From contig CAJINV010000006.1 of the NCBI GenBank assembly GCA_905178155.1, positions 2,449,956 through 2,456,299 of the forward strand: DNA of 6,344 nucleotides, written 5' to 3'. This document shows positions 1 to 5,962 of the stretch, piece after piece. This stretch comes from Amoebophrya sp. A120. Lineage: Eukaryota; Protista; Dinoflagellata. Under the pieces are notes generated by a model. It ran no database searches. It was not told where the DNA came from and saw only the letters and a list, made by a program, of their open reading frames with translations. The position numbers and the translations under genes are program-made. Position 1 is the stretch's first letter, and each line of letters starts with the position of its first letter.

Positions 1-440
1 CGCCATCCTGGTTTGCACGACGCGCGCCATCTCAAAGTCAACCGAAGAGGCAGCTCCCTCCTGCGCCGCTTCTCGGGCGATTCGGTAGGAGAAGCCCTGG
101 CCTGTCGCGGCGATCATCAGAGAAACGACGTATCAAATGCAAAAATGTCTGGGTCTGGAAGAATGCAACTTGTGATGCTATTTTTGGAATCCAAAAAAAT
201 CTGTATTGCATGAGCAACAAGAGGCGTCCAGCTTTTGCTCCGAGGAGAGGGGATTTCTCATGCGGGATAGGCATCAAGATGCCCGCAAAAAATTTGTGAT
301 GCTGGTGCATACATCACAGACATCACGTTCACGGGTCATGCAAAATGTGCATGACAAACCTTGCAATCTTCCAGACCCAGACATTTTTATATTTGATACG
401 ACGACGTGGGAGACAACATCATCCAGCACCGTGTTGAACG
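1..440 (-). CDS. Partial gene of unknown function interrupted by E1 (exon pieces about 440-404 and 130-1, continuing beyond the window)
   Basis: Removing E1 plus one CGACG gives the open minus-strand frame FNTVLDDVVSHVVVSLMIAATGQGFSYRIAREAAQEGAASSVDFEMARVVQTRMA with protein-like composition. Upstream exon structure unresolved (GTGAGT donor at 776-771). Confidence 0.62.
131..398. mobile_element. MITE / introner-like element E1, family A (268 bp)
   Basis: Left end TATCAAATGCAAAAATGTCTGGGTCTGGAAGAATGCAA (131-168) matches the reverse complement of 361-398 at 35/38. Perfect 5-bp flanking direct repeat CGACG (126-130, 399-403). Colinear with E2 and E3 over its full length; no transposase-like ORF. 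Confidence 0.93.
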
Positions 441-481
441 TATCAAGTGCAAATATCCCTGGACGTCTGGAAAGTTGTGAC
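441..481 (+). repeat. Degenerate family A terminal repeat
   Basis: TATCAAGTGCAAATATCCCTGGACGTCTGGAAAGTTGTGAC aligns to the E3 left end at 34/39 with a 2-nt insertion. No clear partner TIR or exact direct repeat found. Confidence 0.7.
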
Positions 482-938
482 GCATGATGTTGTCCTCAGC
501 GAATTATACTAAAGCGCACTGTGATGCAGATGCACCGCCAAGCAAGACACTTCTGCCGCGCTGTTGACTCTGTGTTGCGAATTCCGCGCTCGCATTTTTG
601 ATGTGTGCAACGCGTTATTAAACGTGATCACTTGGAGGCACAACGCGCATCCATTCTGCGCCCGTACTGCCTAAAAACTGAGAAGCTACTGGCTATATCA
701 AGACATCAAAACGGTGGCAAGAAACGACTTCTATACATGTTCCTTCGAGGGTATTTTATGTCGCTGACTCACTCACCAGCGAAGTGGGTGCCTTTGCCTG
801 AGCCGGTGAACAAGAGATCATTGAAGTCCGAACTTTTCCTTTTTCCACAGTCACATTTTTCTTTCGCGATTTTTCTTGTTTTTTGTTTTTGTTCTTTCTA
901 AAATTCGCACTCGTCTTGCGTTTTCCCTTGTTTTCTTC

Positions 939-1448
939 AAATTTGTAATGCGTATTTTGTAGTTAGACTTTCGAGAGCTGTTAGCTGACGGGTCGAAAAA
1001 TATATAACAATATTCTTGCCTACCGTGATGTCTTTAAGCGCAAGGTCTAACTACTATCCTGTTCTTATGGGTCCTGCGTTACAAATCAAATCTGTCATGC
1101 TAAATTGCCGCTCTGCACAGGATTACCATCCTCGCATTACAAATCCACCTTTTAGTTCTAGTTGTAAATCTGTCATGCTGTTTGCGATTTTTTCGTTCAA
1201 AATAAAGTTGTAGTGATGTGACAGATTTCATGAGCAAAACATTTGAAAACGATCAAAACTATCCGTATACGACATATGGCAGAGCTAAACAACAATTTTC
1301 GTGCACGATCGATTTCGTACGAAAGACCGACTTTTTTTCTTTTTTCTCCGAGCCGAATAGGTCAGTTTTCATTTTCATCTACGATTTGCGAAAAGATTAC
1401 ATTTCCGATTTCTTAGCTGCCGGTCTCTGAGATTTGCATTACAGATTT
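939..1448. repeat. Cluster of AAATYTGTVATGC motifs in both orientations
   Basis: Copies at 939-951 (+), about 1076-1086 (-), 1088-1101 (+), 1134-1144 (-), 1166-1179 (+), about 1217-1228 (-) and 1436-1448 (-). The 1088 and 1166 copies are an exact 14-bp repeat. Confidence 0.75.
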
Positions 1449-2405
1449 TGTGTTTTGCTTGTTTAAAATTTCCAAGCGAGTCCACCGATCAACCGAGATT
1501 TACATTTCCTGAAACACAGTCGCCCTGGATACGACGTGATCCAAAAAATCCCTCGGTGTTATGCTTTTGCTTTTGCTATCGCAAAATAGTAACGAACTTC
1601 TTGTCACGTGTTTAATGCCTCCTAGTAGTAATCTGCATTGCATTATCGATATTTAGTACTTAAAATAGAGCCTGTTTCGTCCGAGTGTAGCGATTTGCAG
1701 TAGATTTGTTTTCTTATACTGAAGCACCTTCTTCGGAGAAACGCAGGCGCCTTAGCTCCCATGTCACCCTACTCCAGTGCTATCGAGTATAAACAAGCAT
1801 CTAGCAAGTAATAGTATAAATGCAAAGCGTCTTCTAGTTTTCCCTCTATCTTTTTTCCCCCTCGGTTCGAATTAAATCATACACGGCGTTCTGGTGTTCA
1901 AAGACTATACAGAACATCAAGTCATCAAAAAAGCGGGCCCTCATCTAAAAATCTTTATCTATATCATCAAATTCAAAACGAAAGACTACAACAAATGACG
2001 GAGCAGAAATTAGCAGAGAGAATTATATCGATCGCTCGAAGAGAGCTAGATCTCCTCTCCCTGGATTCCTCCTACCACAATAAATTATACTTACTTAGCC
2101 TAACTAAGTATAAGTAGGACTTCATCTGGCTCTAAAAGGGAGTTAGACGATATATATAGACTTGATACGGAAAGACGGCCTTGCTTGACCGCGCAAACCG
2201 ATCACAAAGAGAGCGGCCTCCTTGTAGCTGCCCGCGCGGTGGATAGGGATAGCCAGTAAAAACAAGCAAGATAGCAGCTGGCACATTCACATGATTAATA
2301 AATATGGAATACAAAGCATCGGCGCCAGACGCAGAAGCTACTACATTCGCTGGCCCTGCCTGTTTCAGCACGCGATGGCCCAACTATTTGAGGAATAGGA
2401 CATGA

Positions 2406-3576
2406 TTACTGAAGTCGGCGCATCTCGTCTGGCACTTCCATGACGACCCCGTCAGCGAGTGCAACACTGTGGAAAGAAAACGAAACCACTTCCAGGCCGT
2501 CTTCTAGCGCCGTCGCACGGTACCGGATATCAAATGTAAAAATGTCTGGGTCTGGAAGAATGCAACTTGTCATGCTGATTTTGGATTCTAAAAAAATCTG
2601 TATTGCATGAGCAGCGAAGAGAGTCCAAGTTTTGCTACACGGAAAAAGCATTTGTCATGCGGTATAGGCATCAGGAAGCCCCCCTCACGAAATCTGTGAT
2701 GCTAGGGCATGCATCACAGACATCATGAGTCATGCAAAATGTGCATGACAAACCTGGCAATCTTCCAGACCCAGACATTTTTACATTTGATACCGGAAGA
2801 CGCAAGTCAACTTGAGCGGTTCGCGAAAGTAAACCCCCAGCTCCACGGATACTATCAACTGCAAAAATGTCTGGGTCTGGAAAGTTGGGACTTGTGATGC
2901 TAACTTTGGACTCTAAAAAAATCTGTATTGCATGACCAGCAAGAGGAGCCACATTAGTGCTGCGCGAGGAGGGCATTTGTCATGCGGAACTGGCATCAGG
3001 AAGCTTTCCANAAAAAAATCTGTATTGCATGACCAGCAAGAGGAGCCACATTAGTGCTGCGCGAGGAGGGCATTTGTCATGCGGAACTGGCATCAGGAAG
3101 CTTTCCAAAAATCTGTGATGCTGGGTCATGCATTACAAGCATCACGGGTCATGCCAGACAAGCATGACAAGCCTTCCATTCTTCCAGACCCAGACATTTT
3201 TGCATTTGATAGATACTTCCCGGACGTCATTTTCGTGGCCCTCCTCTATGGCAGTGCCAGGTTCGAAATCGACAAATTTGAAAATAAGTATCTGTCACCA
3301 GCTGATGAAACAGCTGCAGCAGAGTTTCTAATAAATCAAAATCAACACTGCATGATGATAAATTTTTCCGGCGCCAGAAGCAAATTTGTCATGCTGTTTA
3401 GTGCAAATGGGCTCCCTGCTGCAATTCTAATTCTCGTCAGCAGCCCAGATGTTGCTTGGCGCCTGCTGACATGGCTACTCTGCAAGAACAGGGTCACTCT
3501 TTAAGAACTCGCATTTCATGCGTCACGACAAATTTTTATAGACCTTTGTCAATTTCGGTGCTGGCGCTTTCATATC
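2406..3576 (-). CDS. Reconstructed 3' exons of the RING gene: 3576-3544, 3291-3212, 2847-2793, 2522-2406
   Basis: Removing E4, E3 and E2 (each with one direct-repeat copy) and a GT-AG intron at 3543-3292 gives the uninterrupted frame ...RTRAAE-DMKAPAPKLTK-ILIFKFVDFEPGTAIEEGHENDVREVS-VELGVYFREPLKLTCVFR-YRATALEDGLEVVSFSFHSVALADGVVMEVPDEMRRLQ*. Domain not recognised. Confidence 0.75.
2528..2792. mobile_element. MITE / introner-like element E2, family A (265 bp)
   Basis: Perfect 32-bp TIR TATCAAATGTAAAAATGTCTGGGTCTGGAAGA (2528-2559 / 2761-2792). Direct repeat CCGGA at 2523-2527 and 2793-2797. Confidence 0.95.
2853..3211. mobile_element. MITE / introner-like element E3, family A (359 bp as assembled, 262 bp after collapsing the gap duplication)
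   Basis: TIR 29/30 identical (2853-2882 / 3182-3211). Direct repeat GATAC at 2848-2852 and 3212-3216. Interior colinear with E1 and E2. Confidence 0.93.
2915..3107. other. 96-bp exact duplication on either side of an N (assembly overlap artefact)
   Basis: 2915-3010 is identical to 3012-3107, separated by the single N at 3011. The duplication is absent from E1 and E2. Confidence 0.88.
3292..3543 (-). other. Putative GT-AG intron (252 bp), possibly a decayed element
   Basis: AAG|GTCTAT donor and GACAG|ATA acceptor join exons in frame. Contains in-frame stops and the shared motif (3382-3395, about 3520-3534). Confidence 0.6.
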
Positions 3577-3581
3577 CTCCG

Positions 3582-3906
3582 TATCGTAAGCAAAAATCCC
3601 CCCTCCCCATATCGAAAAGGCACGTCTCAGGAAATTTGTAATGCTCATTTGCGACCTCAAATCATCTCTGTCTTGCAGGACCGAAACTACACAGGCTCCG
3701 CCGCATTCTGCAGGCGGTTTGTGATGCTGTTGGCCCTACAGACTAGGCGTTTGCCATGCTTACCGCCTAGCAGAAAACCTCTCTTTCTACTCAGGCTTAG
3801 TATAGGCCTGCAGTCCTCTCCAGCAAGACAAATCTGATTTCTGTACGCAAATCCAGCATCAGAAACTTCGTTTTGATATGGGGAGGGGGAATTTTTCCTT
3901 TTGATA
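3582..3906. mobile_element. MITE / introner-like element E4, family B (325 bp)
   Basis: TIR 31/36 identical (TATCGTAAGCAAAAATCCCCCCTCCCCATATCGAAA vs reverse complement of 3871-3906). Direct repeat CTCCG at 3577-3581 and 3907-3911. Same TATC...GATA termini as family A but a different inner TIR and interior. Confidence 0.9.
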
Positions 3907-5081
3907 CTCCGCGGCCCTAGTTCTTCTAGGGCGAGAAAACGTGACATCGATCCATCTTACATTCTCGCCTTCACCGCAGACTGGGGGGAGCTTCGTCACG
4001 AAGATTTCGTTTATAGCTTCCTCCTGTCGCATAACGTCCATGTTCCCGATGCTGAAAGACCCCGCAGCCATTGCCCGCTGCCGCTGCAGCGCTGCGTAGT
4101 GCGGGCCCAGCCCCGCACGGGACAGCCGCTGCGCTTTTTCATATTGGCTCACGGCGTTCCAGTTCCTGTCAAAGTCCCTGCCCCGTGGCATCCTCCCAAG
4201 GAAGTTCCATCGGAGGTCCTCGAGCTCTTCACGGAGGCGCGGGGAAATTCCGTTGCCAAGGAGGTCATCTTCCCGCCTGTTGACAAAAAGATCGCGCACA
4301 AACGTAAGAAGAGGGGAGCCTAGGGAGTCTATTCCCCCTGCGGCTTGGGTTGTTCCAGCAGGCTGCATACTGCTGGATGCAATCGCCCCACGAAGGCCGG
4401 CTCGGTGCTGGAATAATTCGAAAGCATCGGCGTCAGAATGGTAGGCCTGCCTGGAGTGCCCCCCGGAATTCGAGTAGACGTTGATAGAAGTAGGCCCAAC
4501 AGCGCTGGCGCCTTCCCAATTTCGGCGCCTTCGCTCCAGCTGCAAACCCAGAAGATCGTCGACGGAGCTGCCGGCGGAGGCGTCGTCGTTTCTGCCGGGA
4601 GTAAAAAAGGCATTCCAAAGGTCCCTCTGGTAGGTCCGCTGCGGTGCTCTTGCCCGCGCGGCCCGAAAGTCGGCTTCGCTCCTGCGACTAACATCGCGCG
4701 CAGTCGCAGCAGCTCTGGAGGAGTTCAGTACAGGTCGTGGGGCCGTGGAAAGAATCGGCATCGGCTTTCCGCGGATCCCGCGCGAGTCGCGGCAAATGGG
4801 GCAACTTCTCTGTGTAGCCAACCACCTGCTGACGCAGTCCCGGTGAAAGATATGCTCTTGCGTGGCCGTCGCGTCCACCTCGTTTTGGTTCTGCGGGTCA
4901 ACGTGCGTGATAAAGACGCTATCCTCCTCCTTCATCGGCTGAAGACAAATCGCGCACGGCTTCTCGCGGTCAAAGTGGTCCTCGTCTCGGGGAAGGTGCT
5001 CCTTGGGCTTGGCGCTGGCACTGCGCCCGCGCCTAGTACGACCTCCACGAGATTCGTGCGACGTTGTACTAGACGCCACGA
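3907..5081 (-). CDS. Main exon of a RING-H2-like zinc finger protein (putative E3 ubiquitin ligase)
   Basis: Long GC-rich open frame containing CAIC...HIFHRDC...WL...CPICR (4956-4792). The ORF-track start at 5079 is GTG and lies just after a TTTTTTCCCGCCCAG splice-acceptor-like site (AG at 5083-5082). The last 15 aa of the track ORF come from element E4. Confidence 0.88.
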
Positions 5082-5477
5082 CTGGGCGGGAAAAAATACT
5101 GGAGCGACTTCAATATCCTCAGCAAAGCCGTCCCCTCCTCATAGTTTTAAGATGGGAAATGTGCGTAGACAAATCTACCAGCTTTGTTTGCTCCGCATGA
5201 CAAGTTTATTGGCCTCGTAGTACAATCCTCGATTTCGCTAGTTCAACAGCATGACAGATCTAGTCTATTATCCTGATCGGAGCTGCGTCACTAATTCCGA
5301 AACACGACTAGAAAACGCTTCTCATGGGGCTCCGTATGAGAAACGCAAACATTTTCATTTATAGATTTAAGCATGCAGATTTGCATGACAACCATGGGGC
5401 GTTTATGTACAACTGGAAGAGACCAAAATAAAGCACATGGCAATTATGGGGTGGGGACGTTTTCACATAGGATAGAC
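5082..5477 (-). other. Putative GT-AG intron (396 bp) between the signal-peptide exon and the RING exon
   Basis: Polypyrimidine-CAG acceptor, lower GC than the exon, motif copies at 5195-5207, 5248-5259 and 5383-5391. Donor tentative. Confidence 0.5.
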
Positions 5478-5568
5478 TTGAGGACGAAGAAGGCGCTGTA
5501 AAGGCACCACGACAAGCGGTCGATCCTACAAGGAGCAAAGAGGCAATCACGCGCCGCGACGCCAACAT
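5478..5568 (-). CDS. Probable first exon of the RING gene, encoding a signal-peptide-like N-terminus
   Basis: ATG at 5568 after an A-rich leader; MLASRRVIASLLLVGSTACRGAFTAPSSSS has basic-hydrophobic-small-residue layout. A phase-1 donor A|GTCTAT at 5477 is compatible with the phase-1 acceptor at 5082. The exact donor is uncertain. Confidence 0.5.
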
Positions 5569-5820: not shown

Positions 5821-5962
5821 TGTAGAAGTTGTCGTGGTTCGCAAATATGAATCAAAGTCGTTTCTACCGTGTAGTTCTTGAGTGCTGCAGTGTAGAAGTT
5901 GTCGTGGTTCGCAAATATGAATCAAAGTCGTTTCTACCGTGTGGTTCTTGAGTGCTGCAGTG
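5821..5962. repeat. 70-bp tandem duplication (2 copies)
   Basis: 5821-5890 and 5891-5960 differ at one base (5873 A, 5943 G); the match continues for 2 more bases. Confidence 0.95.

Follow-up and report, generated by a model that had tools for sequence, protein, structure and literature searches.

Introner elements interrupting a RING-H2 gene of Amoebophrya sp. A120 and a likely fixed offset for their removal from RNA

The window analysed here is a 6,344-nucleotide stretch of the genome of Amoebophrya sp. A120, and it holds a minus-strand gene and several inverted-repeat elements, the coordinates of which are collected in Table 1. In a database protein search with 7,997 scored candidates, the minus-strand open reading frame at 3913-5109 was found to be 100% identical to P0001, a protein of 499 aa that its sources assign to Amoebophrya sp. 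A120, and the sole other match among these candidates was a paralogue, P0002, which also belongs to Amoebophrya sp. A120. P0001 contains a RING-H2 domain, for which the Pfam models PF13639 and PF12678 exceed the cut-off. The gene has five of the elements and zero canonical introns, and it is real, expressed and alive, as the initial annotation had proposed: 371 to 468 reads support each joint at which elements are precisely removed without GT-AG ends. That annotation had also named the introner elements of Amoebophrya as a known analogue; the source organism is Amoebophrya sp. A120 itself, and the elements belong to this published class, not to a new system.

Table 1. Elements, exons and insertion site in the window
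Feature	Position	Strand	Remarks
E1	131-398		E2/E3 family; lies outside the coding region
Last coding exon and stop codon	2406-2523	-	Equals the end of P0001
E2	Element 2528-2792; intron 2524-2793 (270 nt)	-	Repeat TCCGG
Coding exon, 55 nt	2794-2848	-	Bounded by RNA joints
E3	Element 2853-3211; intron 2849-3212 (364 nt as assembled)	-	Repeat GTATC
Coding exon, 30 nt	3213-3242	-	Bounded by RNA joints; true exon after E5
E5	Element 3247-3574; intron 3243-3575 (333 nt)	-	Diverged, TATG...CATA; repeat GAGGA
Putative exonic piece of 2 nt separating E4 from E5	3576-3577	-	Required by the -1/+4 rule
E4	Element 3582-3906; intron 3578-3907 (330 nt)	-	Repeat CGGAG; intron ends set by the proposed -1/+4 rule
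Coding exon 2	3908-5109	-	Open reading frame; RING-H2 at about 4789-4959
E6	Element 5114-5474; intron 5110-5475 (366 nt)	-	TATC...GATA; 1 nt + element + 4 nt
Coding exon 1	5476-5568	-	ATG at 5568; 31 codons, P0001 residues 1-31; RNA joint 5109>5476
Empty target site	5529-5533		Filled in sister-strain locus L086; 296/300 nt identical on one side, 51/51 on the other

Elements were detected by TAT...ATA ends combined with at least 20 complementary letters out of 30, which returned six elements in the window (in order, E1, E2, E3, E5, E4 and E6) and 0 elements in 69,659 bases of shuffled sequence (40 of 136 loci shuffled). E2, E3 and E4 start with TATC and end with GATA, and when their first 30 nt are compared with the reverse complement of the last 30, 30, 29 and 26 letters match, respectively, which, together with perfect repeats, bears out their first description as TIR elements with 5-nt direct repeats. 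The corresponding matches of the diverged elements are 23/30 for E5 and 22/30 for E6. Unbroken terminal pairing extends over 32 pairs in E2, 8 in E1, 6 in E3 and E6 and 4 in E4 and E5, and given how few such pairs are left in E3 to E6, older copies would fail a strict filter for perfect 8-nt ends. The direct repeats are perfect over 5 nt at E1 to E5 and displaced by 3 nt at E6, the fold of which is weak (z -2.1), and the motif formed by TAT, 7 nt and AAA is found on two arms in E1 to E4, on one in E6 and on zero in E5. Any element, if retained, introduces 4 to 6 in-frame stops, and GT-AG, GC-AG and AT-AC pairs are absent from all registers of the 7 joints examined; the initial annotation had noted the stops for E2 and E4 and the lack of such pairs, and the latter led us to reject U2 or U12 spliceosomal intron ends. 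The elements are also repeated in the genome: 10,953 contigs of run X1 matched the window, mostly at the elements, and relatives of E2, E4 and E6 are present in sister-strain loci, where E5 is found as an orthologue and as short end matches only.

These elements are removed exactly from the transcript. Among the 14,360 raw reads of run X11 placed on the window, joint 2520>2791 (E2) appears in 429 with a skip of 270, and joint 2847>3212 (E3) in 468 with a skip of 364, so that both junctions were as predicted from the sequence. Joint 3243>3907, which takes out E4 and E5 in a skip of 663, is present in 430 reads and joint 5109>5476 (E6) in 371, and X11 depth is 0 across 3393-3816. Contigs of runs X3 and X6 carry all four joints, and a contig from an estuary metatranscriptome (X8) carries the first three (E2, E3 and E4 + E5), the studies with these joints being three in all. 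E1 is likewise skipped in X3 and X8 contigs (joint 124>398, 273 nt), in a region where X11 has no depth. Intron-bearing pieces make up about 1-2% in RNA-type runs; run X12 contributed 4 reads and run X5 zero informative joints.

The reads also corrected the gene model. Where the initial annotation had placed a 33-nt exon, a GT-AG intron and an 80-nt exon, the RNA joins 3243 directly to 3907, and the junction it had predicted for E4 is a minor form at most (about 1%). The supposed 33-nt exon and GT-AG intron are in fact E5, an element that had been overlooked, as had E6; three different GT-AG pairs inside E5 yield an open frame by chance. Furthermore, the earlier model adds 27 residues that are not in P0001 and for which the paralogue P0002 has no room. 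The joined frame agrees with P0002, and the read-supported protein aligns with it across the E4/E5 point with a 2-residue gap.

E4 and E5 lie only 7 nt apart, with overlapping direct repeats, and in the fold, which 0 of 20 shuffles equal in stability (z -8.9), each forms a hairpin of its own, the skip of 663 being equal to 330 for E4 plus 333 for E5. A contig of run X4 (record 15) bears on the order of events. It is 388 nt long, has a depth of 6.4 against 490 for the fully spliced form, and its letters 29-388 fall on 3576-3217. With 31-letter words, the length assumed here, an arm produced by removing E4 and keeping E5 would be 388 nt long, with 28 letters of exon at its start and 3217 as its last position, and all three numbers agree; the exon letters are matched by number only, and the contig has fewer than 31 letters on that side. 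No reads with E4 out and E5 in were found in run X11. This one low-depth contig gives strong circumstantial support to the removal of E4 separately from E5, and it may represent a stable E5-retaining RNA rather than an intermediate. The 7-nt spacing is rare, as the shortest gap among 69 neighbour pairs is 29 nt, and we therefore rejected the idea that tandem spacing is a common layout.

The position of the cuts is best seen at E6, where the joint has 0 letters of ambiguity and a single register (CT..GA). There, the cut falls 1 nt before TATC and 4 nt after GATA, removing 366 nt, while the shifted 5-nt repeat available at this site would guide a removal of 369 nt. At the three other joints (E2, E3 and E4 + E5), the break can be placed at several positions over 3-7 nt of repeat, which allows -1/+4 without fixing it. 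When -1/+4 is applied to the five elements, P0001 is obtained letter for letter (499 aa). Taking E4 + E5 as a single intron under the same rule gives 665 nt and a product of 436 aa, and the rule thus requires two separate cuts around 3576-3577. Accordingly, with one unambiguous junction at hand, a fixed -1/+4 register measured from the base of the hairpin is likely. Against it, splice sites are described as varying in position with respect to the hairpin in the legend of Fig. 3 of PMC7789003. A frame test of the rule, run on 9 copies whose repeats are odd after 6 false stems had been discarded by eye, was too noisy to confirm it, its control picking the right frame in 56 of 101 decided cases with 66 undecided.

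We consider it probable that introner elements are removed hairpin by hairpin, with cuts at constant distances of 1 nt ahead of each hairpin and 4 nt beyond it, and one element at a time. In such a model, an element would land and double its 5-nt target, a doubling that is observed, and the machinery would recognise each terminal hairpin and measure the cut from its base. Given that 1 + 4 equals the 5-nt duplication, an insertion at any target would be healed without a scar, which could let the family spread through coding sequence, and the direct repeat would be a by-product of insertion rather than a guide for the cut. In the tandem pair, E4 would leave first and E5 second, and the 2-nt piece would never need to be recognised as an exon. 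Elements in either orientation would be spliceable, given that the two arms would carry the same signal. A single -1/+4 rule would also explain why these genes have been colonised by 5-bp-duplicating elements only, and it would mend gene models in which two elements are taken for one intron or a single element for a GT-AG intron. To the most general form of the idea, a sequence-blind ruler by which any TAT...ATA hairpin is cut at -1/+4, in either orientation and singly, making 5-bp-duplicating transposons instantly scarless introns, we would give an even chance; if it is true, the variety that splice sites seem to show in A120 would be one rule blurred by alignment within repeats.

As for the catalyst, we lean slightly towards a putative modified spliceosome, given that a cut at -1 puts the invariant T of TAT at intron position +2, where GT, GC and AT donors also have T. 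The 3' arm often supplies a T-run, which we counted in the same direction, although this argument is weakened by the removal of E5, which lacks TAT-N7-AAA on both arms. A further reason is that A120 keeps most of the spliceosome, but without a detected U1: according to the text of PMC7789003, 83 of the 89 spliceosomal proteins are present, together with U2, U4, U5 and U6, and U1 snRNA is undetected. The main rival, which is possible if rather doubtful, is that the same hairpin ruler is applied to the RNA not by a spliceosome but by a protein endonuclease together with an RNA ligase, in the manner of tRNA splicing or with a domesticated transposon protein. This would suit cuts without fixed letters or G bias, the apparent tolerance of both orientations and the undetected U1, but it fits poorly with the retained spliceosomal components and with the invariant T at +2 given the -1 cut. 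A bulge-helix-bulge version was rejected, since the central helix cannot form from direct repeats and this geometry would cut at -1/+6, not at -1/+4. Euglenid stem-bounded introns, which exit as non-lariat circles according to the text of PMC11282704, lend the endonuclease and ligase some plausibility.

The preferred fixed register has to be weighed, too, against cuts that float within the direct repeats or are guided by them, with E4 + E5 forming a single 663-nt intron and E6 as a local exception. At most joints the exact break is uncertain by 3-7 nt, variable positions are reported in the text of PMC7789003, and it is possible to write the 663-nt skip as a single GT-starting intron. We nevertheless find this reading unlikely, as the repeat available at E6 is ignored, E4 and E5 form a hairpin each, and the X4 contig matches the size expected with E4 out and E5 in exactly. 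E6 is the element that tells measurement from the stem apart from guidance by the repeat, and in the E4/E5 pair there would be an ordered intermediate that can be tested by PCR.

The initial annotation had allowed for either RNA splicing or DNA excision, of which the former is supported and the latter is not, in view of the RNA joints and of run X1, which keeps the elements. This run is DNA-like, with a flat depth of 43-50 on unique sequence, and consists of contigs from one sample, in which rare variants are lost. Its unbroken contigs at 2300-2549, 3187-3609 and 3879-5322 have a depth of 43-46, X1 contigs continue from the exons into E2, E3, E5, E4 and E6, and, among the joints listed, the joined form has depth 0 at those of 270, 364 and 663. 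Since the DNA keeps the elements and the joined form is at zero at three joints, removal at the RNA level is supported in this one DNA-like sample of contigs and the RNA runs. Ciliate internal eliminated sequences are transposon-derived inserts in coding sequence that are removed from DNA together with one repeat copy, and, unlike them, the Amoebophrya elements are retained in the DNA. Excision of this type in an expressing life stage is very improbable: the transposon anatomy and the precise loss leaving one repeat would be in keeping with it, and the DNA-like run may stem from a life stage other than that of the RNA, but X1 lacks the joined form (which is why ciliate-type elimination was rejected, on contigs of one DNA-like run), the E6 cut amounts to a 3-nt gain and not to an empty site, and intron-bearing pieces persist in RNA-type runs at the level given above. 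Least credible of all is that reverse transcriptase produced the joints by jumping across hairpins where short repeats occur, in a dead or truncated gene, for although the hairpins are strong and three joints have repeats of 3-7 nt, such a jump is excluded at E6, where the joint has no repeat and does not slide, X11 depth is near zero inside the elements, the joints are identical across 3 studies, and the joined frame agrees with the paralogue.

Copies from a sister strain give a view of how these elements insert. The scan of metagenome contigs covered 136 of about 340 stretches of a single assembly, 80 of them with full flanks, and the 5-nt repeat is perfect in 108 of 125 complete E2-family copies and has one mismatch in 12, while repeat lengths of 3, 4 and 6-9 nt are represented by 0 or 1 copy each. 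Target choice is free, the 151 repeats including 120 different ones, and the idea that a G is selected ahead of the element, where it would create a GT donor, was rejected (78/151 against 75 expected). Neighbouring copies share their orientation in 10 cases and oppose each other in 9; these calls were made from sequence, not RNA, and interior alignments were weak in 3 of the 5 pairs checked. For instance, in loci L061 and L063, opposed copies lie in one frame, and their removal would, on paper, leave it open over 210 and 343 codons. A codon model for the strand called 31 of 70 scored cases sense, a signal that both orientations occur and nothing more. Loci L085 and L086 correspond to the gene of the window, with E5 identical at 265 of 265 positions, and the sister strain has an extra 262-nt copy of the E2 family at window positions 5529-5533, with those 5 nt doubled. 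The simpler reading of this filled and empty allele would be a gain in the sister strain, and a precise loss from the strain of the window is possible. With TIRs, a target duplication of fixed length and both filled and empty alleles, as in MITEs, the elements are likely non-autonomous DNA transposons, that is, non-coding inverted-repeat inserts.

The non-canonical introns of A120, including introner elements, were described by Farhat et al. (2021; PMC7789003), and, going by the text of that article, the likeness is close: the same organism, RNA-supported introns without GT-AG, inverted repeats starting with TAT, direct repeats of 3-5 nt at the boundaries, a length of about 240 nt, a genome-wide distribution and no transposase inside, with no cognate transposase found in A120. 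The present elements lie in the same genome, have at least 3 RNA reads (for E4 and E5 jointly, through their common 663-nt skip) and show non-GT-AG ends, inverted repeats, a direct repeat, the family motif TAT-N7-AAA (E5 apart) and repetition. Their end repeats span about 30 nt with mismatches, whereas those of PMC7789003 are given as perfect over 8-20 nt. The text of PMC7789003 treats the cut position as variable or unknown and contains no fixed offset, although its Figs. 3 and S19-S23 may show one; paired elements flanking a piece of 2 nt, their removal in steps, use in either orientation and filled or empty alleles are absent from that text, where the words "excision" and "nested" have 0 occurrences. 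The fixed offset, unless the figures hold it, the stepwise tandem pair, the freedom of orientation and the filled and empty allele would thus go beyond it. Our literature search, at the level of titles and abstract starts, found no Amoebophrya paper dealing with micro-exons, lariats or the register of the cuts. The same text leaves the removal of tens of thousands of such introns as an open question; the class is known, and the locus, with its gene model corrected, is useful for this splicing question.

Other systems share some of these properties. Going by the text of PMC11282704, euglenid nonconventional introns also have a stem that joins their ends, non-canonical junctions, repeats resembling target duplications and a MITE-like origin, but their stem pairs +4..+6 with -8..-6 at a pyrimidine|purine junction, while in Amoebophrya it runs from +2 to -5 and the letters at the cuts are free. 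TIR DNA-transposon introners of other eukaryotes, which likewise create introns on insertion, were described by Gozashti et al. (2025; PMC12130899), whose text also lists TIR introners of diverse kinds for A120, where a single gene can hold tens of introns; introners of other eukaryotes generally bring along or co-opt splice sites that can be recognised, whereas the Amoebophrya elements need none at the cut. The TA..TA termini recall IS3EU/GingerRoot and the duplication recalls the 4-5 bp of Ginger2, as the text of PMC10045372 gives them. The duplication in IS3EU/GingerRoot is usually 6 bp there and 5 here, and membership of that group was rejected, as its termini fit but a 6-nt repeat occurs in 0 of the 125 copies.

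One detail of the assembly concerns E3, which contains an exact tandem duplicate of 97 nt at 2915-3108, with the only N of the window at its seam; no DNA contig of run X1 was found to span it. Minus one copy, E3 measures 262 nt and is colinear with E1 and E2, and as this is the commonest length in the E2 family (28 of 125 sister-strain copies), the duplicate is probably an assembly artefact. With E3 counted in this way, all six introns of the window have lengths that are multiples of three, but a general preference was rejected, as the 125 sister-strain copies split 51/31/43 and all 182 elements 71/45/66; the commonest length just happens to be a multiple of three.

E2 to E6 form the five introns of the gene. 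At least one E2-family copy elsewhere is retained in a transcript, since about 115 raw reads of the RNA run X11 that align to window 2526-2576 derive from a different copy of this family, with three differences. A solitary degenerate copy of an element end lies at window 441-489; no partner end was found for it, and the copy is left unspliced, with RNA contigs continuing across it. Given RNA, three elements with odd repeats at sister-strain loci would offer a natural test of the cut rule, in which the inferred cuts fall 1 nt before and 4 nt after the hairpin stem.

Odd-repeat elements on metagenome contigs of one sister-strain assembly
Feature	Location	Source
Element, 5-nt repeat shifted by 3	L012:234-543	Sister strain
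Element, 8-nt repeat	L039:1229-1508	Sister strain
Element, 7-nt repeat	L092:76-330	Sister strain

Four of the five introns fall in an unnamed C-terminal domain that P0001, the database protein of the gene, has in common with its A120 paralogue P0002, as it does a hydrophobic N-terminal stretch, while the RING-H2 domain (window 4789-4959) is present in P0001 and absent from P0002. One letter at window 2477 is missing from 527 of the 598 X11 raw reads, and this deletion would alter the last 24 residues and give a product of 506 aa. Because the window letter agrees with the DNA-like run X1, the RNA contig runs X3 and X6, and the estuary metatranscriptome X8, the X11 difference seems to be a variant of the strain or of the culture, which somewhat lessens the argument for strict C-terminal constraint. 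X11 also carries an additional T at window 1339 (408 of 445 reads). In exon 2, an X8 contig at window 4557-4924 is a wild allele with its frame intact, showing seven letter differences together with 3-nt and 6-nt indels that both keep the reading frame.

X3 and the RNA contig run X4 each contain a contig of 2,601 nt (window 2-2520). The X3 contig reaches from sequence upstream of the window, across the spliced E1, to the last exons of the gene, whereas X11 depth is almost nil below window 849; the 3′ region may be long, transcription may read through, or transcripts may overlap. At window 5796, 122 X11 reads stop, running into foreign letters that we take to resemble library adaptor, with no spliced leader evident at these read ends, and this position is likely a minus-strand transcript start. 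Upstream of the gene, window 5821-5960 holds a tandem duplicate of 70 nt whose copies are 99% alike.
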